Positions 7,092 through 52,727 of a DNA stretch of 64,000 bases are shown one piece after another. Location of the stretch: the NCBI GenBank assembly GCA_934098665.1, contig CAKOOO010000002.1, positions 20,374 through 84,373 on the forward strand, given 5' to 3'. Numbering within the stretch: the stretch's first letter is position 1; every line of letters starts with the position of its first letter. Below the pieces are notes generated by a model, which was not told the origin of the DNA, ran no database searches, and saw only the letters and a list, made by a program, of their open reading frames with translations. The translations under genes and the position numbers were made by a program. Source of the DNA: an uncultured Bacilli bacterium. Its GTDB lineage: Bacteria > Bacillota_I > Bacilli_A > RF39 > UBA660.

Positions 7092-8041
7092 TTTATACAT
7101 TTACCTCCAATAGTTTTTTCTGTAAAAACATAAGGATTATTAATTGTTCCCTCACCTATAAATAAAGCATCAGCACTTATATTAATTACAGGTTTAACCT
7201 TTGAATTTGATGATACAAGCCTATCAGTACTTGACGAGCCATTTAAATAATATACATATGCACCACCACTATATCTTGAGGGACTCATTGTATATGTATT
7301 ACTTACCTGCCCCGTTAAAAGGCTTTCCTCTATTGTTGGAAGTCCTATATTTAAATTTAATGTATCTAAAGTATTATCACAAGAAAAACTTTGAATATTA
7401 TTTTTATTTATACCGTAGCTATAAAAATACTGCGTTGTAGTTCCATAGCCGTCCGCTAAATTATTATTTCCCTTACTTGGGGTTAAATATGCAATGCGGT
7501 TAGAGCAATAATTTTCATATTTAATATATTTTTCATATTTAGTACCAGAAAAGTTAGTATTATACCAATCATCTAAAAATATTTTTACAGTGCTATCATT
7601 TAATAAACCATTACCATTTTTATTTGAGTATTTAAATCCTACATAAACGGCATCATTACTAATGCTATTAAACATGCTAGATAAATCTTCACCATTATAA
7701 ATAAGTCTAAAACTACCATCACTATTTTTTAAAAGTACTTTCCAAGTAATATCTTTACCTATATTATTTCCAGTTTGATATTTACCAAACTTAACATAAA
7801 TAGGCTCTTTATAATAAGTAATACCTGATAAAGTGCCTTTATTTTTATTATCTAAATTTAATGGACTACTTCCAACACTTTCTGTAACAAAATAAGATTT
7901 TTTTAAATCGTTTTTTATTAATTTAAAATTTAAACGATTATTTGAATAAGTAGTCATGATTAAAACAAGTAGCATGCAAAATACTAGAAAAAATGAATAA
8001 ATCATTGAAATTGAAATTACACCTTTTTTATCTTTAATCAT
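7088..8041 (-). CDS. minor pseudopilin carrying the lectin-like module shared with the large surface-protein family
   Basis: MIKDKKG|VISISMIY leader-like N-terminus without E5. Internal WKVLLKN..FRLIYNG, YVGFKY and DDWYN motifs, and C-terminal KVKPVINIS...GEGTINNPYVF, parallel those of the four large paralogs. Confidence 0.6.
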   Translation of the reverse strand: MIKDKKGVISISMIYSFFLVFCMLLVLIMTTYSNNRLNFKLIKNDLKKSYFVTESVGSSPLNLDNKNKGTLSGITYYKEPIYVKFGKYQTGNNIGKDITWKVLLKNSDGSFRLIYNGEDLSSMFNSISNDAVYVGFKYSNKNGNGLLNDSTVKIFLDDWYNTNFSGTKYEKYIKYENYCSNRIAYLTPSKGNNNLADGYGTTTQYFYSYGINKNNIQSFSCDNTLDTLNLNIGLPTIEESLLTGQVSNTYTMSPSRYSGGAYVYYLNGSSSTDRLVSSNSKVKPVINISADALFIGEGTINNPYVFTEKTIGGKCIK

Positions 8042-14759: not shown

Positions 14760-15203
14760 CTATTTATTTTTACTATCTATCATAATAGTTATAGGCCCAT
14801 CATTATTAATATTAACTAGCATTTCTTCGCCAAAAATACCAGTTTGCACCTGTACATGATTTTCAAGTTTTTGAATAAATCTTTCATATAAAGGTTTTGC
14901 TATATCTTTTTTGGCAGCATTTACATAACTTGGTCTATTACCTTTTTTAGTATCGGCCATTAATGTAAACTGACTTATAAGAAGAACTTTACCACTCGTA
15001 TCAAGTATGCTTTTATTCATAACACCTTTTTCATCATCAAAAATACGTAAACTAACTATTTTATTTACTAAATAATCAATGTCTTTTTCATCATCACTAT
15101 AAGTAATTCCAAGAAAAACCACAAGTCCAAAGGGAATTTGACCTACTACATCGCCTTTTACTTTAACACACGAATTTTTACTTCTTTGAATTAATACTTT
15201 CAT
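14760..15203 (-). CDS. dtd: D-aminoacyl-tRNA deacylase
   Basis: 147 aa. MKVLIQR...SQFTLMADTKKGNRPS. Sits downstream of rel, as in Bacillus. Confidence 0.9.
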   Translation of the reverse strand: MKVLIQRSKNSCVKVKGDVVGQIPFGLVVFLGITYSDDEKDIDYLVNKIVSLRIFDDEKGVMNKSILDTSGKVLLISQFTLMADTKKGNRPSYVNAAKKDIAKPLYERFIQKLENHVQVQTGIFGEEMLVNINNDGPITIMIDSKNK

Positions 15204-17281
15204 ACTCTTTTTACATCCTTTACATAGCGTAGTTTAGAAACATTTTTTATAATGTTTTGTACATCATTTACATTTGTTACTTTTACTTTAACCATATAAT
15301 TTACATCATCCATTAAATCAATAGAAATAATATATACTTTAGGAATTGATACTTTAGCAATAATATCAGATAGTTTATTTTTATTAGAACTTATAGTTAT
15401 TTTAATTTTACATATATAATCATTATTTACATTGTCTATCCATTTAGCACTAACTTTTTTATCACTAGAAATAATATTTTCACAAGTTTTTAAATGAACA
15501 GAAATACCATCATTTTTAGTAATTACACCAACAATATCATCACCTTTAACTGGACTACAACATTTAGCTAAATGAGTAAGAATAGATACTTTACCATCAA
15601 TTAAAATATCACTACCTGATTTAACTGTAATATTTTTAGGTTTTACTATTTCCTCTTCTTTAGGCATTATAATATTTATAATATGAGTTACTGTAAGTTT
15701 ATAAGAACCTACCGCAAAATAAAGATCCTCAATATCCTTGAGTTTACACTCATTTAATATTTTAGTTAAATTTTCATTTGATAAAACTTCATTTATGGAT
15801 ATTTTTTTCTTACGTAATTCTTTTTCAAAAATAGTTTTTCCTCTTGAAATAAATTCTTTTTTATCTATTTTAGAAAAATAAGCTTTTATTTTATCTTTTG
15901 CTTGAGTTGTTTTAACAATATTTAACCACTCTTTTGATGGAGTACTATTTGGGTTTGTTAATATTTTACATATATCACCATCATGTAAAGCCCCGTTAAT
16001 GGGCATTACAGCCTCATTTACAATAGCACCAGTCATTGTATCACCAACTTTTGAGTGAACTTTATATGCAAAATCAATTGGTGTAGAATTTTCAGGAAGC
16101 TCTATCACATCACCTTTCGGAGTAAATACATATATAACATTTCCTAATATATCACGATTTACTCTTTCATTAAATATTTCATCATCTTCATTTTCAGCAT
16201 TTTCAATTATTGAACGATATAGTTCAAGTTTAGTTTCCATATAAGTTTGAATTTTTTTTGTGCCTTTTTCTTTATATGACCAATGTGAGGCAATACCTTT
16301 TTCCGCGATTTCATCCATTTCATAAGTTCTTACTTGAATTTCATAAAATCTTCCTCCAGGACCAAATACCGTTGTATGTAAACTTTGATACATATTTTCT
16401 TTAGGAAGAGCTATATAATCTTTAAATCTCGATGGTATTGGTCTAAATTTTGAATGAATTAAACCTATTACTTGATAGCAATCACTTTCTTTATCGACAA
16501 ATATTCTTAAAGCAAGAATATCATATATATCATCCCATTTTTTGCCATTATTAAGTTTATTATATATACTATAAACACTTTTAACACGGCCCTTTATTTC
16601 AAACTTTATTTCATTTTGATTTAATAAATCACAAATACTTTCTTGCATTTCCACTAAATAATCATTTAAATCATCAACTGTATCATTAAGTTTTTCTAAA
16701 ATATCATTATATACATCTGGTTTTAAATAATATAAACATAAATTTTCAAGTTCACTTTTAATAGAGTTTATACCAAGTCTATGAGCAATTGGTACAAGAA
16801 CTGAAAGTGTTTCATTAGCAACTTTTTTTTGTCTTTCAGGACTTAAAGCTGAAAAAGTTCGCATATTATGAAGACGGTCCGCAAGTTTAATGAAAAGTAC
16901 TCTTACATCTTCACTTAAACCTACCATAACTTTTCTTAAATACATCGCCGCGTTATCAGAGTCATCTACCATATCTAAATGATTTATTTTAGAAAGTGAG
17001 GAAATTATTTTATATGTATCCTCGCCAAAAAGTGATATTATCTCTTTTGGATTAATATCATTAAAATCAAGTACGCTATGAAGTATTGCACAAATAATAG
17101 TTTCTTTAGAAACATTTAAATCAAGTAAAATATTAGCAACCTCAAGACAATGAGATATTTCTGTATCACCATTTTTACGCATTACGCCAGAAAGTTTTTC
17201 ATTTGCATATTCATATGCCTTTTTTACATCCATTATATCATCAGGATTTTTAAGTTTATTTAGTATTACATCAATTTTCAT
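15200..17281 (-). CDS. relA: RelA/SpoT-family (p)ppGpp synthetase with a degenerate hydrolase HD motif
   Basis: Synthetase motifs RVKSVYSIYNKL, YQSLHTTV and EIQVRTYEMDEIAEKGIASHWSYKE, plus TGS and ACT-like C-terminus. Start moved to the ATG at 17281, which is 6 nt after AGGTG. Confidence 0.9.
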   Translation of the reverse strand: MKIDVILNKLKNPDDIMDVKKAYEYANEKLSGVMRKNGDTEISHCLEVANILLDLNVSKETIICAILHSVLDFNDINPKEIISLFGEDTYKIISSLSKINHLDMVDDSDNAAMYLRKVMVGLSEDVRVLFIKLADRLHNMRTFSALSPERQKKVANETLSVLVPIAHRLGINSIKSELENLCLYYLKPDVYNDILEKLNDTVDDLNDYLVEMQESICDLLNQNEIKFEIKGRVKSVYSIYNKLNNGKKWDDIYDILALRIFVDKESDCYQVIGLIHSKFRPIPSRFKDYIALPKENMYQSLHTTVFGPGGRFYEIQVRTYEMDEIAEKGIASHWSYKEKGTKKIQTYMETKLELYRSIIENAENEDDEIFNERVNRDILGNVIYVFTPKGDVIELPENSTPIDFAYKVHSKVGDTMTGAIVNEAVMPINGALHDGDICKILTNPNSTPSKEWLNIVKTTQAKDKIKAYFSKIDKKEFISRGKTIFEKELRKKKISINEVLSNENLTKILNECKLKDIEDLYFAVGSYKLTVTHIINIIMPKEEEIVKPKNITVKSGSDILIDGKVSILTHLAKCCSPVKGDDIVGVITKNDGISVHLKTCENIISSDKKVSAKWIDNVNNDYICKIKITISSNKNKLSDIIAKVSIPKVYIISIDLMDDVNYMVKVKVTNVNDVQNIIKNVSKLRYVKDVKRV

Positions 17282-17507
17282 TTTCATCACCTGTAAAATC
17301 GTCTTTAGAAAGAGAAAGTATATCACTTACCATATCATATAATGTAAGACGTGAAGAATTAACCCATTTATTTTCTTTTAAATAGTTCCAAAGCTTAATT
17401 TCACTTACAACTACTCCATCATTTTTAAGTTCTATTACTTTTGTATTAAATGCTGGATAAAGTCTATTAAATAATTCATTTAAACTTTCAAATTTTATTT
17501 CTTCCAT
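17271..17507 (-). CDS. ComN-like post-transcriptional regulator family protein
   Basis: 78 aa. LNELFNRLYPAFNTKV...IKLWNYL resembles the small ComN/YrzD family. Confidence 0.45.
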   Translation of the reverse strand: MEEIKFESLNELFNRLYPAFNTKVIELKNDGVVVSEIKLWNYLKENKWVNSSRLTLYDMVSDILSLSKDDFTGDENEN

Positions 17508-20301: not shown

Positions 20302-20329
20302 AAAAAAATGATGAAATATTTCATCATTT
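20302..20329 (-). terminator. rho-independent terminator of surface protein gene A
   Basis: Perfect palindrome aaatgatgaaa-ta-tttcatcattt followed by a U-run on the minus strand. Confidence 0.65.
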
Positions 20330-22739
20330 ATTCTACCACAAAAGGATTAGTATATGAGCCATCACCTGAAGATATTGTGGTGCCAGGTTTTAAAGATATC
20401 GATGGTCGCACACCCCGCACGTTGACCACGAGGTTGTTGTTCCACCCACCGGAGTCCACCGCCCCGACGGCGGCGTAGCCGTTACCGTTGAGGAAGCTGT
20501 TGGGAGAACCTAACAAAACATATTGTCCACTGTTAAAGTAATGACTACTTCCATAACCAGCTAAACTTAATTCTGGTACTGTTAATAATCCTATTGGATA
20601 TTTTAACCTTGCTTTTGCATTATTTACACTAAATCTATCTGTTTCATTTGCACATAATAAACTTTTATTACTTGTACTATTATTTTTAAAATATAAAACT
20701 TGACTACTTGTACTTCCGTTTGGATTCCAACCAGTTGAAGATAAATTAGTTATGGTTCTATCATTACAGAATACTGTATCTTCTAGTTTATTTGTATAAC
20801 TTGTCATATTGTTTTTATACCAATTATCTATATATGCTTTTATTGTACTATCATCAGTATTTACATCATCTGCATATAACATTTCATTTAAAGCGTCTTC
20901 TACTGATTTTCCTCCAGTTAAGGTTATGTAATATGAAGCACCATTACTAATATAATATACATAATAAATTGATGTACAACTATTACCATTTGTTAAGCAT
21001 GTATAATGATGGGTATTTACATTACTACTATTAGCAATAAATGTATCTGAATTTATTGTTACTGTATCGCTTAATGTATATGTCCCATTTGTATATGTAA
21101 ATGATGAGCCAAATACATAATCTTGATTTGCTAATGTTGTTCCATCTGTTACTCCTCCAGATAGCGAGTAATAATATATTATTGTTCCACTATTTGAAAC
21201 TATATAATAGGGATTAGAACAAGATGTTGATGTGCTATTACATGTATATCTTCCAGATAATGTACTTGATGAAGACACTGTTATATTACTAGGGTTTACT
21301 AAATTGTAAGTACCATTATCATATGTTACACCAGTGCCAATTACTTTTGTACCAACTAAATTTACACGATTAATTATTTTCTTAGATGAATATGCATATA
21401 CTTTATTTTCATTATACATATATCCTACATATGCTGGTGAATTATATTTACTATTAAATGCACTTGTTCCTATTATTGTATCTGTTCCTGTATTATTACA
21501 TGATTTTATTACATCTCCTACTGCTTTGCCAATACTAAATACTACATTATCATTATTTTTTGATACACTACTATCTTTAGAATATTTTACGGTAATAACA
21601 TCTGAAGTTGTAAGACCTTTAAGAGCAATTGTTCCTGAATCTGTAAACTTACCAAGTGATGTGGTACCATTTATAAATTCAGCTTTATCACAGCATGTTT
21701 CTGATGATACAGAGTAATTTAAATAATAATCTCCAGCTTCTTTTACACTAAATGTTATTGTTCCCGTTTTACCATGGTCATGATTTGTACTTGTCCATGT
21801 TTTAATTGTTTCATCAAATGTATATGGATATGTAGCATCATTTGTTACATTTATATATTCATCTTGATTAATAGGTTCTGTATTGACTATATCTTTTACA
21901 GCACCATTATAAACAATTTTTACTCCACCTGTATCTGTGGTTCTTACTATTTTCCAGCATTTATCTGCAAATAGTACATTATTATTTTCTACATTGCCAG
22001 TATAGTAATATACTTTATTTGCATATTTTGTTGTATCTTCATAATCACTTCCATTATATAGTTTTACATACTCATCACCATTTAAATATTTTCTTGCAAT
22101 TATAGAGTATAAATTCTTTGCATATTCCTTAAAATCACAATCTATATTTTCTACTTTAATATTACCACCAAAGGTTTTACCTATTATAGAGTTATCTTGA
22201 GCTATATTTAGATTATAGTATCTTAAATTAAAGTTCCATGTTTCACTTATACTTGTTTGTGATGTTGTTGTTTCTATTGAACCAGAATAAATTTTTATTT
22301 TACTGCTTCCTGCTAAAGAAACATCGTTAAAACTATTACCTTGATTAGAGATTCCTCTTACAGCATATTCTTTTAAAGTGCTTTGTGATGGTGTATAAGA
22401 AGTGCTTGGAACGTATACTATATCATAAGAACAATATACTGGGGCATCACCTTTTGCATCAAGTGTTAAAGTTAAATTTGAATTACTTTCTACATATGAA
22501 GTATAATCATTTGACGCACTCCCCACATCTAAATCACTTTCATTTATTGCTAATGCTACATTTTGATTTCCACTTGTATTAAATGTATAAAACTTTGTAT
22601 CTATCCTTGAGGTTGCATTATTATTTGTATTTATTTTCATGCTACCAAAAAATGCATAAGATGCACTTACTAATATAATAAGAGCTATTACTGATGCTAT
22701 TATAGTTAATATTTTCTTCTTATTATCACTTTTTTCCAT
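20328..22739 (-). CDS. large surface protein A of the lectin-like paralog family (carries GC-rich variable island)
   Basis: N-terminal signal-anchor KKKILTIIASVIALIILVSASYAFFG. Family motifs CWKIVRTTDTGGVKIVYNG, PAYVGYMYNE, IDNWY, FCNDR, YPIGLLTVPE and GVRPSISLKPG...GDGSYTNPFVVE. Start set at the ATG at 22739, after GAAAGG. Confidence 0.8.
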   Translation of the reverse strand: MEKSDNKKKILTIIASVIALIILVSASYAFFGSMKINTNNNATSRIDTKFYTFNTSGNQNVALAINESDLDVGSASNDYTSYVESNSNLTLTLDAKGDAPVYCSYDIVYVPSTSYTPSQSTLKEYAVRGISNQGNSFNDVSLAGSSKIKIYSGSIETTTSQTSISETWNFNLRYYNLNIAQDNSIIGKTFGGNIKVENIDCDFKEYAKNLYSIIARKYLNGDEYVKLYNGSDYEDTTKYANKVYYYTGNVENNNVLFADKCWKIVRTTDTGGVKIVYNGAVKDIVNTEPINQDEYINVTNDATYPYTFDETIKTWTSTNHDHGKTGTITFSVKEAGDYYLNYSVSSETCCDKAEFINGTTSLGKFTDSGTIALKGLTTSDVITVKYSKDSSVSKNNDNVVFSIGKAVGDVIKSCNNTGTDTIIGTSAFNSKYNSPAYVGYMYNENKVYAYSSKKIINRVNLVGTKVIGTGVTYDNGTYNLVNPSNITVSSSSTLSGRYTCNSTSTSCSNPYYIVSNSGTIIYYYSLSGGVTDGTTLANQDYVFGSSFTYTNGTYTLSDTVTINSDTFIANSSNVNTHHYTCLTNGNSCTSIYYVYYISNGASYYITLTGGKSVEDALNEMLYADDVNTDDSTIKAYIDNWYKNNMTSYTNKLEDTVFCNDRTITNLSSTGWNPNGSTSSQVLYFKNNSTSNKSLLCANETDRFSVNNAKARLKYPIGLLTVPELSLAGYGSSHYFNSGQYVLLGSPNSFLNGNGYAAVGAVDSGGWNNNLVVNVRGVRPSISLKPGTTISSGDGSYTNPFVVE
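20404..20510 (-). other. candidate DGR variable region (VR-A)
   Basis: 107 nt at about 65% G+C (hand count) inside a ~25% G+C gene. It encodes GSP-NSFLNGNGYAAVGAVDSGGWNNNLVVNVRG-VRP. Confidence 0.5.
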
Positions 22740-22764
22740 AACAAACCTTTCTATTATCAATTAA

Positions 22765-33912: not shown

Positions 33913-34005
33913 ATGAAAAAAAAGACAAGAAAAAAAGTAGCATGGATACTTATAGTACTTATGCTTTTATCAGTAGTTGCAAGTATCATAGCATACTTTC
34001 TATAA
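33913..34005 (+). CDS. candidate 30-aa membrane peptide (MKKKTRKKVAWILIVLMLLSVVASIIAYFL)
   Basis: AAAAGGAAG RBS. TTGAAA-17-TGgTAAATT promoter at 33859-33887. Confidence 0.3.
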   Translation: MKKKTRKKVAWILIVLMLLSVVASIIAYFL

Positions 34006-34743
34006 TAAGTTTAATAAATTTAAGAACTTATCTTGAAAAAGAAAAACAATAAATAATGAAGAAACCAAAAATGGGCCAAAAGCAACTTCATTATTTTTTT
34101 GTAGTTTTAAGGAAGCTACACTATATGGAAGTGCTAAAAAAGAAGCAAGAACAAGTGATATTAATGAAAGTTTAAAATTAAGTGCATAACCAATAACAAA
34201 AGAAAGTTTTATATCTCCCCCACCAAGGCTCTCTTTTTTAAAGGCAAAATCTCCGATTATTTTAATTAAATACATTATTAAAAATAATGCTACTCCACTT
34301 ACTAAACTAATAAGTGCTTCTTTGTAACCAAAATAAATAAATTTTAAGATAAAAAGTAATACACTACTTATTATAAGGGGGCTATCTAAAATAATATAGT
34401 AATAAAAATCAGTAATAAATATTAGTATCATAAGACTTGCTAAAACTAAAAGTGCATAATGCATGTAACCAGTAAAAAAATGGTAGCAAAGTGCAAATAA
34501 AATGCCTGTACTAATTTCTATAATTATATTAACCATACTAATTTTCTTATGACAATATCTACATTTACCCTTTAAAAAAATGTATGAAAAAATAGGTATT
34601 AAATCATACCATGCTAAAATATGATTACATTTATCACATTTACTACGAGAAAAAAAGGCATCTTCACCTTTAGGAAGTCTTTTACCTATAACAAGGTAAA
34701 AAGATCCTAAAACTGTGCCTATTATAAACATAATTACTTCCAT
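34000..34743 (-). CDS. prepilin peptidase (A24 family, PilD/ComC-like)
   Basis: Cys-rich CDKCNH...CRYCHKKIS, a GGGDIKL active-site region, and a polytopic membrane topology. Confidence 0.85.
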   Translation of the reverse strand: MEVIMFIIGTVLGSFYLVIGKRLPKGEDAFFSRSKCDKCNHILAWYDLIPIFSYIFLKGKCRYCHKKISMVNIIIEISTGILFALCYHFFTGYMHYALLVLASLMILIFITDFYYYIILDSPLIISSVLLFILKFIYFGYKEALISLVSGVALFLIMYLIKIIGDFAFKKESLGGGDIKLSFVIGYALNFKLSLISLVLASFLALPYSVASLKLQKNNEVAFGPFLVSSLFIVFLFQDKFLNLLNLL

Positions 34744-34751
34744 AACTCCCC

Positions 34752-36317
34752 CTATAAAATACTGTTGTAAACTTGGAACATTGGGATAATTACCGCAAGA
34801 AGTATACCACCAACAATTATAGCCAAGAATACAATCATAATTGGTTCTATTAAACTCTTTAATGAATTAATAATATTTTTATGCATAACTTGATAATAAT
34901 CACTTACTTTTTGCATCATATCTGCAAGTTGCCCGGTTGATTCACCAGTTACTATCATATAATATGCAACATCTGGTACAGCCCAGTGATCTTTAAATGC
35001 ATCTGATATTTTTTCACCTTTAACTATATTATCAATTGTTTTATACATTACTAATCTATATATTTCATTTTTAGTTATTTTACTTAAAATACCCATACTT
35101 TCAGTAATATAAACATTATTTCTTAAAAGTGAGGCAAATGTTTTTGCAAATATAGTAATTTCATTATATATAATAATATTTTTTATAACAGGAATTTTCA
35201 TCGTAACTGTTTGAACAAAAATTCTAAACATTTTAACCTTTTTATACATTACATAATTTGCAAATATTAATAAAGCAAAAACTAATATAACTGTTATAAT
35301 ATTATTTGTTAAAAAATTACTAAAATTAATAAGCCATTTTGTAAGTCCTGTTACCGCAACATCCATTTGGGCATAAATATCATTAAACTGTGGTACAACA
35401 TATAAAACAATAAATGTTATTACCGCAATAGAAAAAATCATTATAATAAGTGGATAAGTAAGAGCACTTTTCATTTCTTTTGTAGTATTATGAACTTCAG
35501 TATAATACTGGGCCATATCCTCAAGGGTCTCTTGAAGTGTTCCCGTAGCTTCAGCGGCTTTAATCATATTTATAAGAAGTGCTGGAAATAAAGTACCTTG
35601 TTTTGCAAGAGCATTTGAAAAAGTTTCTCCAAGAGCAAGTTCATAACATATTGCATCATAAACTCTTTGTCTTGTTTTATTTTTCATTTGTGATGTAAGT
35701 ATTTTCATACCTTCATTTAAGGTAATACCTGCTTTTAAATAAGTAGAAAGCTGAGTTAAAAAGAATATTAAATCTTTTTTAGACATTTCTCTTGAAAAAA
35801 TAGAATTTTCATTATATAAAAAGTTAATCATTTTTGAGGTTTTAATATCATATACTTCATAACCTTTATTAAGTAAAAATGCATTTATATCAAGTTTTGA
35901 AAGGCCAGATATAGTTCCTGAAAATATTTGATTATCACCTTTTGCATTTCTAACTGTAAATCTATATACATTTGGAGTTTTACTTCGAGTTGCTCCACCC
36001 ATTCTTAAATCATTTTCTAAAGCAATTTTCATTTTTTCATATTTTTTTAATGTTGCATTGCTATACTTATATACTTTTTGCCTTTTGATAGTTTTACCTT
36101 TAGTTTTTTCATAAAGGGCCTCTCTTTCATCTGCTGTTTCAATTTTTTCTTTTTTAGATCCTACCGCTTTTTCTAAATTCCATGCAAAAAAGTTAAATAA
36201 AATAACCCACATGTCCCAAAGTAAAAACTTTATTCCCTTTAAGCTATAAAATGGAATGTAAATAAAACTTAATAAAAAGTCAACTAAAATATTACTCTTC
36301 TTTTTTTCTGTATCCAC
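34752..36317 (-). CDS. type II secretion/type IV pilus platform protein (GspF/PilC/ComGB family)
   Basis: Two T2SSF repeats (LTQLSTYLKAGITLNEGM... and FAKTFASLLRNNVYITESM...). GTG start 7 nt after AAGGAG. Confidence 0.85.
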   Translation of the reverse strand: MDTEKKKSNILVDFLLSFIYIPFYSLKGIKFLLWDMWVILFNFFAWNLEKAVGSKKEKIETADEREALYEKTKGKTIKRQKVYKYSNATLKKYEKMKIALENDLRMGGATRSKTPNVYRFTVRNAKGDNQIFSGTISGLSKLDINAFLLNKGYEVYDIKTSKMINFLYNENSIFSREMSKKDLIFFLTQLSTYLKAGITLNEGMKILTSQMKNKTRQRVYDAICYELALGETFSNALAKQGTLFPALLINMIKAAEATGTLQETLEDMAQYYTEVHNTTKEMKSALTYPLIIMIFSIAVITFIVLYVVPQFNDIYAQMDVAVTGLTKWLINFSNFLTNNIITVILVFALLIFANYVMYKKVKMFRIFVQTVTMKIPVIKNIIIYNEITIFAKTFASLLRNNVYITESMGILSKITKNEIYRLVMYKTIDNIVKGEKISDAFKDHWAVPDVAYYMIVTGESTGQLADMMQKVSDYYQVMHKNIINSLKSLIEPIMIVFLAIIVGGILLAVIIPMFQVYNSIL

Positions 36318-40206: not shown

Positions 40207-40587
40207 CTATAATTTTCTTGAGTTTACGACATATTGTTTACGTAAATTAAACTTATCACATGTTATTAAATACAAATTATTTTCATCAAAATTAAAACTA
40301 TATTTTTTACCTTTTTCTATATATTCAAAACTTACTATTTCATATTTATAAATTTTTCCATAGTACTTTAAATAGATAATATCATTTATATTTAAATCAA
40401 ATAAATCATTAAAATATGCATTATCACCATAACCGGAATGTCCTAAAATAAATAATACACTTTTTTCATTATTTGGCATAATGCTTTTTTCATGAAGTTT
40501 TATATTATCACAAAGCGTTGAAGTGCTAGAAAAAGACTTTTTAAAATTAATTTTAGGGATTATTAAAGTAAGTTTATTATAATTCAT
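40207..40587 (-). CDS. sortase catalytic domain, separated from its anchor and start codon by a homopolymer frameshift
   Basis: LGHSG (His), LYLITCD (Cys) and RKQYVV (Arg). The same frame stays open upstream, encoding KKSKIIILILVIITVFSSQ, but has no start codon. See findings. Confidence 0.6.
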   Translation of the reverse strand: MNYNKLTLIIPKINFKKSFSSTSTLCDNIKLHEKSIMPNNEKSVLFILGHSGYGDNAYFNDLFDLNINDIIYLKYYGKIYKYEIVSFEYIEKGKKYSFNFDENNLYLITCDKFNLRKQYVVNSRKL

Positions 40588-40675
40588 TTTATCAAAAAGA
40601 GTATTTTCATAATATATTTCTTTTTTTATTTGGGAAGAAAAAACTGTTATTATTACTAAAATTAGAATTATAATT

Positions 40676-41953
40676 TTACTTTTTTTTTACACATATTTTT
40701 ATTCCCACAAAAAGCAAAAGAGTTACAAGTATTATTAAATATTTATAAGGAAATGAAAATGTATTTTCAAATGTAATATCCTTTATATTATTTTCACTAT
40801 CTATATCATCATTATTAAAAATATCATTACTAATAAGTTCATTATTAATATTTTTTAAATTACCATTTTCTTCATTATTATCATTATCAATATTTTCATT
40901 ATTATCATTTTCTAAATTACCATTTTCATCATTATTAATATTTTCATTATTTTCTTCATTTTGAATAACCTTTTTATTTAACTTTAATTTAATTAAAGAG
41001 TCATTTATATTAACATTTTCATTAAAGTCTTCATAAATATCATCACCCTTTATAAAGATATTATAAGTTCCTTCAAATAATTTAAGATTTATCATCCCAT
41101 TTTCATTAGAGCAATATTTTTCATCATTAATATTTATACATTTATTTACAAGCTTATCTTCATCATAAACTAAAATACTTGTGCTTGTTTTATCACCATT
41201 TATTTCCATTACATACTTTTTATCGTTAAAATTAGTAGTTGAAAAAAGTGTATTACTACCATTTGTAACTAAAAATTCAAAAAGTGGTTCTGCTATAGGA
41301 AGTACTTTTTTTCGAAAAACAAGTTTATGCTTACCCTCTTTTCCTTTAACAGTTAATTTATCATTTATAATATTTACTTCAAGGTTATCTTCATTATCAT
41401 ATAAATAAAAATTATCTAAATAATCAAACTGAAATTCTTTTATTTCACCTGGCTCTATATTAACTGTGTTATTCCAAAATGAAGGACCTTTTATAACTGA
41501 AAAATATTTATCTTTTATTTTCTGATAAAAATCTTCGTAAATTTCATATTTTTCTTTAGTATTTGGATAGCAAAAATAAAACTCTTTTTCTGGATATAAA
41601 TATTCCCATATAAGTCTTTGAGTTAAAGAGTGATATACTCTTTCATCAACGTTTAATTTATCCCTTATTTCCATAAAGGCAAAATATAAATCTTTTATAT
41701 CTTTGGAATAATTACTTTTTTCATAAGTAATTTTTTTATAATTTTCTACATTTGTATCAAGCATATCTCTTGTTTGGGGTACTAAAAAAAATGTTTCTCT
41801 ATGTTCAAGCCAAACATAAGTAAGTTCATACATATTTCCATCACTTGAACATAAATTTTGATGAGTTGTATTTATTAAACTTGACACACTTATAGCGTGC
41901 ACATTTTTAGATAAAGTAAACAATATAGCCAAAAATATTAAATATTTTTTCAC
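40676..41953 (-). CDS. secreted surface protein with a sorting-signal-like C-terminus and an N/D/E-rich spacer
   Basis: Signal peptide MKKYLIFLAILFTLSKNVHA (GTG start after GAAAGGAAA). C-terminal hydrophobic stretch plus a KKK tail. TQRLIW resembles the Gln motif of thioester-domain adhesins (weak). Confidence 0.65.
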   Translation of the reverse strand: MKKYLIFLAILFTLSKNVHAISVSSLINTTHQNLCSSDGNMYELTYVWLEHRETFFLVPQTRDMLDTNVENYKKITYEKSNYSKDIKDLYFAFMEIRDKLNVDERVYHSLTQRLIWEYLYPEKEFYFCYPNTKEKYEIYEDFYQKIKDKYFSVIKGPSFWNNTVNIEPGEIKEFQFDYLDNFYLYDNEDNLEVNIINDKLTVKGKEGKHKLVFRKKVLPIAEPLFEFLVTNGSNTLFSTTNFNDKKYVMEINGDKTSTSILVYDEDKLVNKCININDEKYCSNENGMINLKLFEGTYNIFIKGDDIYEDFNENVNINDSLIKLKLNKKVIQNEENNENINNDENGNLENDNNENIDNDNNEENGNLKNINNELISNDIFNNDDIDSENNIKDITFENTFSFPYKYLIILVTLLLFVGIKICVKKK

Positions 41954-42031
41954 TATTATTTTCCTTTCTATATTTCCTATCACCAAATATAAAAAGTTTT
42001 TACGAGCAATTTAAATATAACAAAATATTTT

Positions 42032-42562
42032 TTATTTGTCTATAATAAATTTAAATAATTTTAAAGCAAAAAAATATTTTAGTATTAAACATATTATATT
42101 ATTTATAAAATATACACTAGACATTACAATTATTTTTTTCATATATAAAAATAAATTATTAATATTTCTTTTGTACTTATTAAATATATTTAAATAAATG
42201 TGTTTAATAAATTTATATGAATAAAATGAATTTAAATATAGAAAAAATATATTTAATAATTTAAAAAATATAAAATAAACTATTATAAAAAGTAGTCCCT
42301 TTAGTTTGTATGATATTATAAATAAAGATATCATATATCCAAAAGAAAAACCTTCGAAAAATAAAAGTGTTTGACTTAAATTTAAACTTATAAGTGGAAG
42401 TACAATGCATAGTAAGCTAATTAGTAATAATATAAGTATTATTTTAAAAGAAATAATATTTATGAAAACGACATATTCACTTAAATTTACTGGATATAAT
42501 AAACCAAAAAGTATTCCTACAATTAAAGCTATAATAATGCTATAATTAATTAATTTTTTCAT
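42032..42562 (-). CDS. polytopic membrane protein, unknown (possibly SpoIIM-like)
   Basis: 176 aa with 5-6 TM segments. The assignment is weak. Confidence 0.4.
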   Translation of the reverse strand: MKKLINYSIIIALIVGILFGLLYPVNLSEYVVFINIISFKIILILLLISLLCIVLPLISLNLSQTLLFFEGFSFGYMISLFIISYKLKGLLFIIVYFIFFKLLNIFFLYLNSFYSYKFIKHIYLNIFNKYKRNINNLFLYMKKIIVMSSVYFINNIICLILKYFFALKLFKFIIDK

Positions 42563-42585: not shown

Positions 42586-42612
42586 AAAAAAAATGATAGA
42601 TTACCTATCATT
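42586..42612 (-). terminator. rho-independent terminator of surface protein gene C
   Basis: aaugauag-guaau-cuaucauu hairpin plus a U-run on the minus strand. Confidence 0.6.
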
Positions 42613-44731
42613 AATTAATAATATATGGTTTAGTATACGAGCCATCTCCTGAAAACACTATAGTTTCAGGTTTTAGTGATATGACAGGTTTTACACCAAT
42701 AGATGCCATTGCTGTTCCTCGTGATACAGTATCGTATAACGTTGATTGCATTAAGATTCTTTGATATAATACTGGTGATTGTAGCCATATACCATATCCT
42801 GTATATAAATAATGTTTTTTTGCTTCCACATCTTTAGTTGCCAAATGTGCTTCTGGTGCAGAAAGAAGTCCAACTGGATATGTTAAAGCCCCATTACCAT
42901 TACTAATGTTAACTGTAAATCTATCATTTATATTTTCACAAAAAAGACTATAAGTAACATCGTTATTTTTAAATTTAAATGAATCACCTGTTGTTTGTTT
43001 ACTTAATGACCAACTACCAAGATCAGTATTGCTTCTATCATTACAATATATTGTATCTTCTAATTTATCTGTATAGTTTATCATATTATTTTCATACCAT
43101 GCATCTACTACTTTTTTTATTGCACTGTCCTTTTTATTAACATCATCCGCATATAACATTTCATTTATTGCATTATCTATTGACTTACCATTAGAAATTT
43201 TTATTGCAGAAATATCACTAGTGCCCTTATAATTGATATAATATATAGAACTACAAGTGTTTGATGAATTATAACAAGTAAAATGATAATCATCAATATT
43301 ACTATAATTTGAACGCCAAGTTTTTGCATTAACAGTGATAGTATCCGTTAAAACATATTTACCATTTGTATAAGTAAAAGATTTACCAAAAACATAATCA
43401 ATATCATAATAAGATCCATTTGTTATACCGTCTTTCAAAGTAAAATAATTAAATTGCCTACCGCTTGTTGAAAAAATATATCTTACTTTTTTACAAGAAG
43501 TTGAGGAACCATCACTACAAATATATTTTCCAACAAATGTACTTAAATCACTACTTGTTGTAATATTTACAGAAGTTGGATTTACAAGACTATATAATCC
43601 ATTACTATATGATACTGAGGTTCCAAACATAGTAACATTGCTTGATGTCATATAGTTCATAATTTCATAGTAGTTATCTTCATATGCAATATTATACATA
43701 TACCCAGCATATGCTAAAGAGTTTTGTTCTTCATTATAAGGAGAAAAAGCAATTTGAGCATCATAATATGTATTATTACAAGATTTATATTTATTAATAG
43801 TTTTTCCAAAACTAAATATAACATTATTTCTTGTTCCTGAAGTATAACTTTGATTTCGAGTAAATACTACTTTAATTGTATTTGAGGTAGATAAATTATC
43901 TAAAATAATTTGTCCAGAAATATTACCAACATAGCTACCAAGTAATTCACTATCTTTATAAATATTTATATTCATATCATTTATATTTGCATAAGTTGAA
44001 ACGTCATAATTTAATGCGAAGTCACCATTTTCTGGAACATTAAATGATATTGCTGAACTATTTGTTCCTGTATTTGTACTTGTCCATGTTTTATTTGTTT
44101 CATCAAAAGTATATGGGTATTGTGAATTATTTATTAAATTTTTGTATTGCGATAGTTCAAATAAATTTAAATCGGCAACATTTTTTTGGCTACCATTATA
44201 AATCATTTTAACTCCACCAGTACCTGTAGTTCTTACAATTTTCCAACAATACCCACCAAAAAGAACATTATTATTTTCTACAGCTCCATTAAAGTAATAT
44301 ATATTATTTGCATAATTTGTTGTATCCCCATAATCTGCACCATTATAAATTTTTACAAAATTATCATTGTCTTGATATCTTTTTGCTATTGTATCATATA
44401 GTTTGGCACTATAATCAAAGTATAAATAGCATTTATCACTTCCTATAAAACTAAAACCCACTACCCCGTTTACATTATCATAACTAATTACTTCACCATT
44501 ATTTTCACAATGTGTTTTTTCTTTATTTAATGTATAATTTCCTTTGGGTATATCTTTTGAACTTGATTTTGTATAATCAGTTGCACCATCTTCTTTTATC
44601 ATTATAGATAATTTTTCTTCTTTAATTGGGTTATTTTTACTTAAACTATTTTGCTTAAATTTATAGGTTAAAATTAAACTTAAAATCCCTACTCCCAAAA
44701 ATACGAACAACACTATTTTTTTCTTTTTCAT
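42611..44731 (-). CDS. surface protein C of the lectin-like paralog family
   Basis: MKKKKIVLFVFLGVGILSLILTYKFKQNS anchor, nearly identical to gene B. CWKIVRTTGTGGVKMIYNG, LAYAGYMYN, VDAWY, YCNDR, YPVGLLSAPE and GVKPVISLKP...GDGSYTKPYIIN. ATG at 44731 preferred over the track GTG. Confidence 0.8.
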   Translation of the reverse strand: MKKKKIVLFVFLGVGILSLILTYKFKQNSLSKNNPIKEEKLSIMIKEDGATDYTKSSSKDIPKGNYTLNKEKTHCENNGEVISYDNVNGVVGFSFIGSDKCYLYFDYSAKLYDTIAKRYQDNDNFVKIYNGADYGDTTNYANNIYYFNGAVENNNVLFGGYCWKIVRTTGTGGVKMIYNGSQKNVADLNLFELSQYKNLINNSQYPYTFDETNKTWTSTNTGTNSSAISFNVPENGDFALNYDVSTYANINDMNINIYKDSELLGSYVGNISGQIILDNLSTSNTIKVVFTRNQSYTSGTRNNVIFSFGKTINKYKSCNNTYYDAQIAFSPYNEEQNSLAYAGYMYNIAYEDNYYEIMNYMTSSNVTMFGTSVSYSNGLYSLVNPTSVNITTSSDLSTFVGKYICSDGSSTSCKKVRYIFSTSGRQFNYFTLKDGITNGSYYDIDYVFGKSFTYTNGKYVLTDTITVNAKTWRSNYSNIDDYHFTCYNSSNTCSSIYYINYKGTSDISAIKISNGKSIDNAINEMLYADDVNKKDSAIKKVVDAWYENNMINYTDKLEDTIYCNDRSNTDLGSWSLSKQTTGDSFKFKNNDVTYSLFCENINDRFTVNISNGNGALTYPVGLLSAPEAHLATKDVEAKKHYLYTGYGIWLQSPVLYQRILMQSTLYDTVSRGTAMASIGVKPVISLKPETIVFSGDGSYTKPYIIN

Positions 44732-44778
44732 ATACTCCACTTTTTCTCCGTAAATACGGCATATAATTTTCTTATATT

Positions 44779-44901
44779 AGGTAGATTTAAGAAAATTCTA
44801 CCTTGTATTTACGTACCTTACTATTAAATAATACACTATTTTTTATAATTTTTAAAGTCTAAATAACGATTTTACGCATATCTATTTTCTTAAATGTATC
44901 T
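44779..44901. promoter_or_regulatory. invertible-switch copy 1 upstream of gene C, promoter-like segment facing the gene
   Basis: IRL is aggtagatttaagaaaatt (44779-44797). IRR at 44883-44901 matches its complement at 16 of 19 positions. The 85-bp interior is the reverse complement of the interior at 52554-52638. Confidence 0.6.
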
Positions 44902-44968
44902 ACTTTAGGAAAATACGAACAAGGTAATTACTGAGTTTTTTTGATATTAACTTATTTTTTTGTTTTTC

Positions 44969-44999
44969 AAAAAAAGTTATAACTTTTAATGCTATAACT
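44969..44999 (-). terminator. rho-independent terminator of the NUDIX gene
   Basis: aguuaua...uauaacu stem followed by a U-run on the minus strand. Confidence 0.45.
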
Positions 45000-45616
45000 T
45001 AATCAAAATAAGTAATAAAATCTTTTTCATTATTTGCCTTAAAACATAATTCTATTTGTTTTAAAGTTGTTTTTTCATTTGCAAGATTTTTTGGAATTTC
45101 TTTTAAAGAGAAATATTTAGTTTCTATAGTTTCATTATTTTTTGTAAATGCTCCATCTATAGTTTTACACAAAACAAATGCTTTACATACTCCATAAGCA
45201 TAAACTGGTGTATTATGTTTATTACGATCCATTAGAGCTATTAATTTTAGTGGTTTAACATTAAGCCCAGTTTCCTCTTTTACTTCTTTTATAGTATTAG
45301 ATTTAACACTTTCAAGTACATCACACCACCCACCAGGAAGTGACCAAGAACCGTTATTTTCCTTTACTAAAAGAATTTTATCATCTTTAAATATTGCGGC
45401 TCTTGTATCAATTTTTGGTGTTTGATATCCATTATCGCTTGCAAATAAATCTTTAATTTTTTCAAATGGTAAATCATTTTTATATTCAAGTAGCTTGCAA
45501 GCAATATTTCTAATTTCTTCATATCTTTCTTTATCAAAAGGATTATTTGCATATGTAAGACCATTTTGACCAATTGCCTGAAGCATTACAATAAGTTTTA
45601 TATATTCATCCATCAT
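44999..45616 (-). CDS. NUDIX hydrolase
   Basis: Nudix box GGWCDVLESVKSNTIKEVKEETGL. Confidence 0.8.
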   Translation of the reverse strand: MMDEYIKLIVMLQAIGQNGLTYANNPFDKERYEEIRNIACKLLEYKNDLPFEKIKDLFASDNGYQTPKIDTRAAIFKDDKILLVKENNGSWSLPGGWCDVLESVKSNTIKEVKEETGLNVKPLKLIALMDRNKHNTPVYAYGVCKAFVLCKTIDGAFTKNNETIETKYFSLKEIPKNLANEKTTLKQIELCFKANNEKDFITYFD

Positions 45617-50360: not shown

Positions 50361-52487
50361 TTATTCTATTACAAAAGGATTAGTATATGTGCCATCACCT
50401 GAGGATATTTCTGTCCCTTGTTTAAGTGATATTGAAGGTCGCACGCCACTCGCGCTGGCCACGAAGTTGTAGTGCAACCCACTGTAGTGCACCACCCGGA
50501 CGCCTACGTGGTTGCCGTCAAAGTTGTGGGGAGAACCAAGCCAAACTTCTTGTCCACTATAAAAGTAATGACTACTTCCACTTCCATAACCAGACAATCT
50601 TAATTCTGGTGCTGTTAATAATCCTATAGGATATTTTAATTTTGCTTTTGCATTATTTACACTAAATCTATCTGTTTCATTTGCACATACTAAACTCTTA
50701 TTACTTGTACTATAATTTTTAAATTCTAATGGTGTTGTACTTCCGCCGTCTGGGTTCCAACCTTCTAAACTTGATATACTTCTATCATTACAAAATATTG
50801 TATCTTCTAGTTTATCATCATATTTATCTTTTATATTTTCTTCATACCAACTATCTATATATGCTTTTATAGTACTATCTTTTTTATTTACATCATCTGC
50901 ATATAACATCTCATTTAATGCATCACTTACTGACTTTCCCCCCGTTAAGGTTATGTAATATGGAGTACCATTATAAATATAATAAACGTAATAAATTGAT
51001 GTACAGCTATTACCATTTGTTAAACATGTATAATGGTGGGTATTTACTTTACTACTATTATTAATAAATGTATCGGAATTTATTGTTACTGTATCAGTTA
51101 ATGTATATGTTCCATTATATGTAAAGGATTTGCCAAATACATAATCTTGATTTGCTAGTGTTGTTACATCTGTTGTTCCTCCAGAAAGTGAGTAATAATA
51201 TATTGTTGTTCCACTATATCCCGCTATATACCATAAACTATAACATGTTCCTGTTGTATTTGAACTATTACATGTATATTTACCTACTAAAGTACTAATA
51301 TTAGAACTTGACACAGTTATTGTTGCTGCATTAGTAAGTGTATATTTATTACTTGCATAGGTTGCTCCATCTCCATATGCTTTTTGTCCACTAAAATATG
51401 TATTATTAATTATTGTCTTAGATGAAGATGGATATACTTTGCTTTCATTATACATATATCCTACATATGCTGGTGAGTTAGAATAATTATTAAATGTACT
51501 TGTTCCTATTTGTGAATTCTGTCCTGTATTATTACATGTTTTTATTATACTATTTGCTTTTCCGAAACTAAATATTACATTATTTCTGTTTCCATCTAAA
51601 GGCGGCATTTGTCTAGTATAAACTAATTTTACTACATTTGATGTAGCAAGGTCTTTAAAAACAATTTGTCCAGTTGCTACTCCAGTATATTTTCCTTGAC
51701 TTACATCATCTTTAAATATTTCTACATTTATATAATCAATATAGTCATCCATTGATAAATCATAATTTATTACATAATCTCCGCTTGTTGGTGCCGTAAA
51801 TGATATTGTTGAACTATTTGCTCCTGTATTTGTACTTGTCCATGTTTTATTTGTTTCATCATATGTATAGGGATATGATATATCATTAGTTAAGTTTGTA
51901 TATTCTGACTGATTTAATAAAGTGTAGTCATCTATAGTTGGTCTTCCACTATATACTATCTTAACTCCACCTGTATCTGTAGTTCTTACTATCTTCCAGC
52001 ATTTATCAGCAAATAAAACATTGTTATTTTCTACAGCTCCGTTAAAGTAATATATATTGTTTTCATATGACGTTGTATCTCCATAATCTGCTCCATTATA
52101 TAGTTTTACAAATACATCATCTCTATTATATCTATTTTCAATTATATTGTATAAAGGTGGTACTATTTCATCAAAATATAAGAAACATTTATCTGTACCT
52201 ATAAAAGCAAAAGACACAGTACCTGTAGCATTATCATAACCTTCTATTTTACCATTATTTTTGCAATAACTTTTTTCTGTGTTCAATGTATAATCACCTT
52301 TAGGAATATCCTTTGAGCTTGATTTTGTATATTCTGTAGCACCAGATTCTTTTATCATTATAGATAATTTTTCTTCTTTAACAATTTTATTTTTACTTAA
52401 ACTATTTTGCTTAAATTTATAGGTTAAAATTAAACTTAAAACACCTACAAATAAAAATACGAACAACACTATTTTTTTCTTCTTCAT
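50361..52487 (-). CDS. surface protein B of the lectin-like paralog family (mosaic, carries GC-rich variable island)
   Basis: The N-terminal ~130 aa are nearly identical to gene C. The C-terminal ~250 aa are nearly identical to gene A, apart from the GC-rich island. Confidence 0.85.
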   Translation of the reverse strand: MKKKKIVLFVFLFVGVLSLILTYKFKQNSLSKNKIVKEEKLSIMIKESGATEYTKSSSKDIPKGDYTLNTEKSYCKNNGKIEGYDNATGTVSFAFIGTDKCFLYFDEIVPPLYNIIENRYNRDDVFVKLYNGADYGDTTSYENNIYYFNGAVENNNVLFADKCWKIVRTTDTGGVKIVYSGRPTIDDYTLLNQSEYTNLTNDISYPYTYDETNKTWTSTNTGANSSTISFTAPTSGDYVINYDLSMDDYIDYINVEIFKDDVSQGKYTGVATGQIVFKDLATSNVVKLVYTRQMPPLDGNRNNVIFSFGKANSIIKTCNNTGQNSQIGTSTFNNYSNSPAYVGYMYNESKVYPSSSKTIINNTYFSGQKAYGDGATYASNKYTLTNAATITVSSSNISTLVGKYTCNSSNTTGTCYSLWYIAGYSGTTIYYYSLSGGTTDVTTLANQDYVFGKSFTYNGTYTLTDTVTINSDTFINNSSKVNTHHYTCLTNGNSCTSIYYVYYIYNGTPYYITLTGGKSVSDALNEMLYADDVNKKDSTIKAYIDSWYEENIKDKYDDKLEDTIFCNDRSISSLEGWNPDGGSTTPLEFKNYSTSNKSLVCANETDRFSVNNAKAKLKYPIGLLTAPELRLSGYGSGSSHYFYSGQEVWLGSPHNFDGNHVGVRVVHYSGLHYNFVASASGVRPSISLKQGTEISSGDGTYTNPFVIE
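50437..50537 (-). other. candidate DGR variable region (VR-B)
   Basis: 101 nt at about 62% G+C (hand count). It encodes GSP-HNFDGNHVGVRVVHYSGLHYNFVASASG-VRP, at the same position as VR-A. Confidence 0.5.
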
Positions 52488-52534
52488 ACACTCCTCTTTT
52501 TCCGCATAAGTACGCCATCGAGTTTTCTTATATT

Positions 52535-52657
52535 AGGTAGATTTAAGAAAATTACATAGCGTAATTTCGTTATTTAGACTTTAAAAATATAAAAAAGTAA
52601 TGTATAATTTAATAGTAAGGTACGTAAATACGAAGTAGAATTTTCTTAAATCTACCT
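52535..52657. promoter_or_regulatory. invertible-switch copy 2 upstream of gene B, promoter-like segment facing away from the gene
   Basis: Perfect 19-bp inverted repeats: aggtagatttaagaaaatt (52535-52553) and aattttcttaaatctacct (52639-52657). The interior has TTTAAA-17-TATAAT on the plus strand (52580-52608). Confidence 0.65.
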
Positions 52658-52727
52658 ACTTTAGGAAAATACGAACAAGGTAATTACTTGGTTTATTTGA
52701 TATTAACCTATTTTTTTAAATTTACAT

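Follow-up and report, generated by a model that had tools for sequence, protein, structure and literature searches.

The question raised by this locus is whether a short segment of DNA in front of a gene for a predicted secreted protein is an invertible promoter and, if so, whether it can still invert. The locus lies in a stretch of 64,000 nucleotides (nt), hereafter the window, from an uncultured Bacilli bacterium (GTDB lineage Bacillota_I; Bacilli_A; RF39; UBA660; assembly GCA_934098665.1, contig CAKOOO010000002.1, positions 20,374 to 84,373). Gene C (42611-44731, minus strand) encodes 706 amino acids (aa) from the ATG at 44729-44731, with an alternative GTG at 44738-44740, and an intergenic gap of 267 nt separates it from the gene of a NUDIX hydrolase (44999-45616, minus strand). 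Positions 44779-44901 within this gap had been singled out in an earlier note, made from the sequence alone, as a switch related to a second one in front of a paralogous gene, gene B. According to our analysis switch C is very probably an invertible promoter (inverton) that controls gene C, and the full explanation, in which the inverton is served by a trans-acting recombinase and switch C is locked in the ON orientation, appears likely.

The switch before gene C and its paralogue before gene B

Switch C spans 44767-44913 and is composed of two lox-like sites in inverted orientation, which flank a promoter-like element. A 19-nt repeat, TAGGTAGATTTAAGAAAAT, is found at 44778-44796 on the plus strand and, with two mismatches, at 44884-44902 on the minus strand, and before gene B it occurs in two perfect copies (52534-52552, plus strand; 52640-52658, minus strand). 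When up to three mismatches were allowed, TAGGTAGATTTAAGAAAAT gave five matches as compared to 0.17 expected, and five or more were reached in none of 100 shuffles. The maximal repeat is 20 nt long and agrees at 17 of 20 positions in switch C and at 20 of 20 in switch B; hence both are short segments bounded by inverted repeats. Compared at 44779-44797 and 44883-44901, the left and right repeats of switch C match at 16 of 19 positions, exactly the count that the earlier note had given. From the gene-side end of the repeat to the ATG of gene C we measured 46 nt, close to the previous estimate of about 50 nt.

Each of the two sites consists of arms that are inverted copies of each other and of an asymmetric 7-nt spacer. 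The gene-proximal crossover site (44767-44795) reads TTTTCTTATAT / TAGGTAG / ATTTAAGAAAA, an 11-7-11 arrangement with the spacer at 44778-44784, and switch B and related strains have exactly this sequence at their proximal sites. The gene-distal crossover site (44885-44913) reads TTTTCTTAAAT / GTATCTA / CTTTAGGAAAA, with the spacer at 44896-44902. Two inverted arms around an asymmetric spacer of 6-8 base pairs (bp) are the plan of tyrosine-recombinase core sites (lox, FRT, dif, attP core), and each of the four sites in the window, like those of 16 further loci, follows it in the 11-7-11 form. The invertible core, 87 nt between the 19-nt repeats (44797-44883), carries the promoter-like element on the minus strand at 44828-44856, with a -35 box TTTAAA (44851-44856), a 17-nt gap, a -10 box TATTAT (44828-44833) and then a conserved TTAATAGTAAG. 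In the window this element is oriented toward gene C, as the earlier note had reported.

The paralogous switch in front of gene B (50361-52487, minus strand) spans 52523-52669 and has perfect repeats. Its promoter, TTTAAA-17-TATAAT at 52580-52608, is on the plus strand and faces away from gene B (OFF). The flanks of both switches align collinearly, whereas the 87-nt cores align only after one of them has been reverse-complemented, then with 91% identity. Switch C is thus indeed a paralogue of the switch at 52.5 kb in the opposite orientation, and all descriptive statements of the earlier note on switch C, covering repeats, promoter element and paralogy, proved to be correct.

Both orientations occur in natural populations

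Inversion was judged from independent public assemblies, in which the consensus gives the majority orientation only. At the B locus, ten contigs encode an identical CotJC neighbour, and in five of the ten gene B is present as a 726-aa allele whose flanks agree on either side. Among these five, the loci L088, L089 and L095 show the orientation of the window and L091 and L093 the other one, the core of L093 being the exact reverse complement of the core of L088. Contigs of the C locus were found by searching for the identical NUDIX protein or for proteins closely homologous to protein C. In L084, where the switch follows the identical NUDIX protein, the repeats are intact and the core is flipped compared to the window, with 84 of 87 positions identical after flipping. 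L082 is also flipped (OFF) and covers part of the switch, and L083 and L102 have intact distal spacers and are ON. Both orientations are therefore present in natural populations, at the B locus (L088, L089 and L095 versus L091 and L093) as well as at the C locus (L084 versus the window). The heterogeneity of orientation anticipated in the earlier note is found at both loci across assemblies, and this class of switch demonstrably inverts in nature.

Contig ends inside switches were considered as a sign of mixed orientation and discarded as uninterpretable, since multi-copy flanks and repeats break assemblies anyway. As a separate observation, the metagenome OIZL01 contains six different switch-bearing loci with the same distal site in a single sample (L100-L105). 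The orthologue of switch C among them, L102, is ON, the cores of the other five are OFF as far as the contigs reach, and in four of the six the contig breaks off within the core. L101 and L092 probably represent one contig, as contig number, size (3549 nt) and intergenic sequence agree.

Partner spacers match in the family and mismatch in switch C

In 16 independent loci the two partner spacers are perfect reverse complements with no mismatch at all, although the arms differ and eight different spacers occur (TAGGTAG, TATATAC, TATATAG, CTGGTAG, CATATAC, CTAATAC, CTATTAC and CTTATAC). Such complementarity across loci is the pattern expected of the strand-exchange region of a site-specific recombinase. 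Switch C itself departs from it. Read on the other strand, its distal spacer is TAGATAC as compared to TAGGTAG at the partner site, a mismatch at two of seven positions, and both mismatches of the 19-nt repeat lie inside this spacer; the orthologous loci L084, L083 and L102 have an intact TAGGTAG at the distal site. With Cre, FLP and lambda Int, recombination is blocked when the partners differ in the spacer or overlap region. Because two of the seven spacer positions of switch C mismatch while 16 loci keep the match, we lean towards the view that switch C is locked, or strongly impaired, in the ON orientation.

Three of the switches found break the spacer rule, those of gene C (2/7), L091 (1/7) and L015 (3/7), and all three are ON, whereas most intact switches face away from their gene. 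The TAGATAC allele is present in the window and in L001, L002 and L085, with contigs from three samples and two differently named assembly series, and is ON in four of four cases. The earlier note had taken the degenerate right repeat as a hint that the switch is possibly becoming locked. Considering that the two substitutions fall into the 7-nt spacer and that every carrier of the allele is ON, a lock is still the best reading of the data.

Alternatively, switch C may still invert, perhaps more slowly, if the substitutions are tolerated and the ON state results from selection or clonal descent. We regard this as unlikely, though to be taken seriously. The four carriers of the allele may represent one clone, and the ON core of L091, with its 1-nt mismatch, is identical to the ON core of L093, so that the mismatch may postdate the last inversion. 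In addition, some tyrosine recombinases, such as XerCD at dif, tolerate differences in the central region for the first strand exchange. On the other hand, the 16 loci keep complementary spacers despite variation of both spacers and arms, which argues that the match is required, and the contrast between the mismatched switches, without exception ON, and the mostly OFF intact ones speaks against ongoing inversion as well.

Several further observations concern the spacers. All switches seen in the species of the window use TAGGTAG, with two mutated distal sites as exceptions, TAGATAC at gene C and TATGTAG in L091; the latter is a B-locus switch (2157-2303) with a single substitution in the distal spacer, and it is ON. 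The switch of L015 (819-1167, ON) belongs to the 320-nt class, and its spacers CATATAC and CTATTAC differ at three of seven positions. Each of the two recurs as the spacer of other loci in that genome (L004 and L011), suggesting that the switch of L015 is a chimera formed from two loci. In the CAKONC genome (L009, L012, L014 with two switches, and L030) at least four different spacers were found, CATATAC, CTAATAC, CTATTAC and CTTATAC; different spacers within this genome would keep its loci from recombining with one another, much as heterospecific lox sites do. A scaffold of Mycoplasma sp. CAG:472 (L010) carries two switches about 1.9 kb apart, at 1276-1423 and 3141-3288, with the spacers TATATAG and CTGGTAG.

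Candidate recombinases

Inversion is probably catalyzed by a tyrosine recombinase. This class is preferred over serine recombinases because of the 11-7-11 plan with its odd-length, fully matched spacer. Related loci were screened with two regular expressions over about 690 open reading frames (ORFs), and hits were then checked by Pfam. The motif of tyrosine recombinases matched four ORFs, all confirmed by Pfam with E = 1e-48 to 1e-53. These Xer-like genes adjoin genes of the family in L006, where the stop codon is 95 nt from the distal site, in L015 and L021, where they are located just downstream, and in L061. The L061 protein passes the XerD cut-off, that of L006 is just below it, and that of L015 is below the cut-offs of both XerC and XerD. 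The adjacency of these genes was not accepted as proof of an invertase, as the one above the XerD cut-off may be a housekeeping gene, and we treat them as candidates only.

A serine invertase, either Hin/Gin-like or a large serine recombinase, is an improbable catalyst. In its favour, no recombinase that would fix the class was found among the scanned ORFs of the window, and the imperfect-palindrome sites of up to about 65 bp resemble the att sites of large serine recombinases in size. The serine-invertase site of the hix/gix kind, however, has 26 bp with 12-bp half-sites, a 2-bp crossover, an enhancer and an adjacent invertase, while the central region here has 7 nt; an asymmetric, matched spacer of odd length fits the overlap region of a tyrosine recombinase and not a 2-bp crossover. 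In the screen of about 690 ORFs the serine motif matched once, off-position at residue 338 of a 781-aa ORF in L080. By this motif screen, neither the window nor the related loci contained a credible serine recombinase ORF, Pfam confirmed tyrosine ORFs only, and no Resolvase domain was detected among the scanned ORFs of the window.

A conserved promoter-like element within the core

The core appears to carry the promoter of gene C. Between 44650 and 45050, on both strands, promoter-like matches were limited to two overlapping registers (TTTAAA-17 and TTAAAA-16) with the TATTAT box in common, and the predicted element, conserved across species, is the sole consensus match in the intergenic region. 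When 12 switches from several species were aligned in the sense of the promoter, the inner arms, the -35-like box, the -10 box, TTAATAGTAAG and ACGTAAATAC were conserved. The -10 box has a TGn extension in the other species and, together with the TTAATAGTAAG that follows it, always lies inside the core. Between the inner halves of the sites there is space for little beyond the -35/-10 pair and the conserved TTAATAGTAAG. It is this conservation across species and the position, not the significance of a single match, that give the element its weight. ON and OFF are states predicted from the orientation of the promoter.

Judged from the -10 position, the leader predicted for the ON state is about 90 nt long (44732-44821, minus strand) and has the proximal site folded into a hairpin, with GGAG and the start codon after it. 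It folds with -19.1 kcal/mol, and no U-tract follows the hairpin. No Rfam match was obtained for 44400-45200, hence no known riboswitch or leader RNA is present in this region.

The earlier note had also raised a mechanism of the cwpV type, in which a fixed promoter lies upstream and an intrinsic terminator in the leader works in one orientation only. At 46 nt from the start codon the switch would indeed be part of the leader of any transcript from upstream, and its repeats can pair as long RNA hairpins in both orientations (-29.3 kcal/mol for the whole switch in the OFF orientation). However, no promoter-like site was found between the NUDIX gene and the switch (44903-44998, minus strand). 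A terminator-like hairpin with a 10-bp stem followed by U7 (44968-44999, minus strand; -8.5 kcal/mol, z = -3.0) stands after the NUDIX gene and upstream of the switch, and terminator-like stems with a U-tract were absent from both switches in either orientation. Moreover, the conserved promoter-like element lies inside the core, whereas the inversion region of cwpV is promoter-free by definition (PMC2784873). A cwpV-type mechanism is therefore disfavoured and, in our judgement, very improbable.

In some other species (L018, about 2660-2690, and L028), read on the gene-sense strand, the core end that faces the gene in the OFF state has a small GC hairpin with a T-run behind it (for example CCCATAAAATGGG CATCGATTTTT). 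The OFF state might thereby gain a terminator; no equivalent was seen in the species of the window.

That there is no programmed switch at all, and that rare RecA-dependent recombination or an assembly artefact produced the two orientations, is hardly credible: contigs do break in or near the switch (L082, L097, L102-L105, L086 and L087), as assemblers struggle at the repeat, but both orientations are also spanned by full-length contigs whose unique flanks are identical to either side, other species have kept the site plan, the promoter and a fixed site-to-site distance of 118-119 or 320-324 nt, and repeats of 20 nt are too short for efficient homologous recombination.

Proposed mechanism

In the inverton that we propose, two lox-like sites with inverted arms of 11-12 nt, an asymmetric 7-nt spacer and weaker outer arms would bracket the 87-nt core with its promoter of the sigma-70 type. 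The recombinase would be encoded outside the window and most likely be an Xer-like tyrosine recombinase that acts in trans on all switches of the family. Strand exchange within the 7-nt spacers would flip the core. With the promoter toward the gene, gene C would be transcribed with the leader of about 90 nt; with the core flipped, as at gene B, no promoter would face the gene. With the change of the distal spacer from TAGGTAG to TAGATAC, the two spacers of switch C have lost their complementarity; strand exchange would then be expected to fail, which would hold the switch ON. Of this model, the site anatomy, the natural inversion of such switches at both loci, the conservation of the promoter and the complementarity of partner spacers are observed; the activity of the promoter, the identity of the recombinase and the lock are deduced.

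Several points weigh against this explanation. No recombinase was detected among about 50 ORFs of the window scanned against Pfam, a scan that excluded the large ORFs 1299-3821, 10648-12987 and 20328-22760 (the last being gene A), and the recombinases adjacent to family genes elsewhere, being Xer-like and in one case above the XerD cut-off, could be housekeeping genes that are there by chance. A single consensus promoter match is not above chance in DNA of 25% GC, where shuffles average 3.0, and the -10 box in the species of the window is without the TGn extension present in other species. Consensus assemblies reveal the majority orientation only. Finally, the four ON cases of the mutated allele may stem from one clone in related cohorts and are then not independent tests of a lock.

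Outer arms of the crossover sites

Weaker outer arms with the consensus G[TA]AA[AT]TAC are located 8-9 nt farther out than the inner arms. For the proximal site these are CGTAAATAC (44749-44757), outside the core, and GTATTTACG (44805-44813), inside the core and read as ACGTAAATAC on the promoter strand. The latter is near-invariant across species in the alignment of 12 switches. Together they extend the proximal site to a 29-7-29 quasi-palindrome, the 29-nt arms of which are 79% complementary. The other end of the core has a weaker, weakly conserved motif resembling the outer arm, CGATTTTACG (44867-44876). A further such motif, GTAATTAC (44924-44931), lies in the distal flank, inside a flank of about 60 nt common to the B and C loci, and a related flank, ...CTTGTTCGTATTTTCC, is conserved in other species.

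Gene C, its paralogues and its neighbourhood

Protein C has a basic, hydrophobic N-terminus. Its AlphaFold2 (AF2) model is beta-rich with a predicted local distance difference test (pLDDT) value of 76, and Foldseek retrieved only generic beta-sandwich modules of about 145 residues (CBM/MAM/CUB type) with low template modelling (TM) scores. For proteins B and C neither Pfam nor NCBIfam gave a match, and a sequence search of the PDB returned nothing significant. An exact look-up of protein C found no record, and related loci were traced through neighbouring proteins (NUDIX, CotJC and a protein of 337 aa); more than 1298 homologues, none of them named, exist in metagenomes. Judged by the model, these features are consistent with a secreted binding protein, and protein C would be a secreted or anchored beta-rich member of a large uncharacterised family. 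Proteins B and C are 52% identical overall; near-identity is found over their first 60 residues and, in the DNA, over the leader and the flanks of the switches.

Three small genes with spacings of 45-90 nt follow downstream of gene C (40207-42562, minus strand). They encode a multi-pass membrane protein of 176 aa, a protein of 436 aa and a sortase-domain protein of 126 aa. The 436-aa protein has a signal peptide and a hydrophobic, basic C-terminal tail, which resembles a sorting signal, and no LPXTG was seen. As this gene order is conserved in L083, switch C may control a small operon that includes the three downstream genes.

A third paralogue, gene A (20328-22738, minus strand), encodes about 803 aa from the ATG at 22738 and shares 63% identity with gene B across 613 residues. 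The N-terminus (…SASYAFFGS), which we take to resemble a signal peptide of the SipW/TasA type, is not the one of gene B. A fixed TGaTATAAT promoter stands before gene A, directly after the FtsW gene, and no inverted-repeat switch is present there. The predicted state in the strain of the window is thus gene A constitutive, gene B OFF and gene C ON. With respect to promoter orientation this agrees with the earlier note, which had gene C phase-ON and gene B OFF. Its further suggestion, alternating expression of family members, found no support: orientations look independent for each locus, gene A has its fixed promoter, and nothing points to a coordinated alternation of B and C. The ORF at 15200-17326 (708 aa) was considered as a third paralogue as well and rejected, as its translation, judged by eye and with no family search, looks like a RelA/SpoT-like protein.

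At 6573-7100 and 34000-36317 the window additionally contains type IV pilus genes, which encode a prepilin peptidase, a platform protein resembling PilC and a pilin that has a methylation motif at its N-terminus, as well as homologues of the spore-coat proteins CotJB and CotJC. This gene content is notable for gut Bacilli of 25% GC whose relatives are labelled Mycoplasma or Mollicutes.

The same switches in other species

A search of contigs with the single sequence of protein C returned nothing, and an alignment was needed. A profile search of genome contigs with the alignment of the family yielded 326 relatives, with several paralogues per genome. The labels of the respective metagenome-assembled genomes (MAGs) include uncultured Bacilli (from Hadza and other gut samples), Mycoplasma sp. 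CAG:472, Anaeroplasmataceae, Erysipelotrichaceae and similar. The 19-nt repeat is not conserved outside the species and failed as a search pattern there; switches in the relatives were found by a generic repeat scan and an arm-spacer-arm model. Many family genes are preceded by arm-spacer-arm sites, with site-to-site distances of 118-119 nt or 320-324 nt across species. Orientation varies among paralogues, as in the CAKONC genome, where L014 and L030 are ON and L009 and L012 are OFF. In the short class, the 87 nt between the repeats are very short for a DNA loop, which hints at strong bending or an accessory protein.

A wider scenario can be put forward only tentatively, and we would give it somewhat less than even chances. 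A whole clade of AT-rich Bacilli, uncultured and from the guts of humans and animals, may possess a mycoplasma-like phase-variation system not described so far, in which paralogous secreted CBM-like proteins, several to many per genome, have their own miniature invertible promoters of two fixed sizes. One trans-acting Xer-like recombinase would serve all of them, the 7-nt spacer would act as an address against recombination between loci, and spacer mutation would be a recurrent route to permanent ON, as for gene C, L015 and L091.

Comparison with known systems

The mechanism is of a known kind, and the closest known system is mpl of Mycoplasma penetrans. The mpl (P35) family (Horino et al. 2003, as described in PMC2268961) has 38 lipoprotein genes, most of them thought to be independently switched by adjacent invertible promoters, with Xer-like candidates for the recombinase. 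Both systems have a scattered multigene family of surface proteins, in which each gene has its own short promoter-bearing invertible element between inverted repeats and independent ON/OFF states. Xer-like tyrosine recombinases, nearby or elsewhere, are candidate invertases in both, and the host lineages, AT-rich Bacilli and relatives of the Mollicutes, are related. Unlike the mpl products, the proteins of the window have no lipobox and no family match and are unrelated to them, and the sequence of the sites is different. The host analyzed here has CotJB and CotJC homologues and a sortase-domain gene, its site is resolved as 11-7-11 with a partner-matched spacer, and its inversion is deduced from assemblies.

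Like switch C, the RecV/cwpV system of Clostridioides difficile has a surface-protein gene of a Firmicute, placed after a short invertible segment with imperfect inverted repeats; its tyrosine recombinase is encoded elsewhere and serves several switches, as is proposed here. In cwpV the promoter is upstream, none is inside the inversion region, and OFF is achieved by a terminator in the leader (PMC2784873). In switch C, by contrast, the promoter-like element lies in the core, and searches for a promoter upstream of it and for a terminator that depends on orientation were negative.

A promoter on an invertible segment between inverted repeats, upstream of surface genes as proposed here, is also common to fimS of E. 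coli (FimB/FimE), the capsule invertons of Bacteroides fragilis (Mpi) and the PhaseFinder/DeepInverton invertons. The fimS element measures 314 bp, and Mpi is a serine recombinase. Compared to fimS and Mpi, the core described here is much shorter, and gene family and clade differ. Bacteroides has a single recombinase with a global action on many loci (PMC2268961). Among the papers that the literature search returned, none contained the term RF39 or linked it with DNA inversion or phase variation, and the DeepInverton paper makes no mention of Bacilli, Mollicutes or Erysipelotrichaceae.

With heterospecific lox and FRT sites the switches share the arm-spacer-arm plan, and the same logic would apply to the lock and to the differing spacers within one genome. 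In loxP versus lox511 or lox2272, and in FRT variants, identical spacers are required, and no recombination takes place once one of the partners has one or two spacer substitutions. These variants were engineered from phage or plasmid systems, whereas the variation reported here is natural and its effect on recombination is predicted by analogy.

Implications

This locus is of value for three reasons: its lox-like site is clearly delimited, its core of 87 nt is very short, and it holds what is plausibly a naturally occurring locked-ON allele. Detection of invertons in AT-rich genomes could be improved by defining the site as arm-spacer-arm with spacers that match between partners. The locked-ON allele, if real, would mean that a phase-variable gene becomes constitutive through two substitutions in a spacer; as the mechanism itself is known, the conceptual gain is moderate. 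Bacteria of this little-studied group are known from metagenomes only, and more than 1000 secreted proteins in one family, with invertible promoters for individual genes, suggest that their surface varies extensively.

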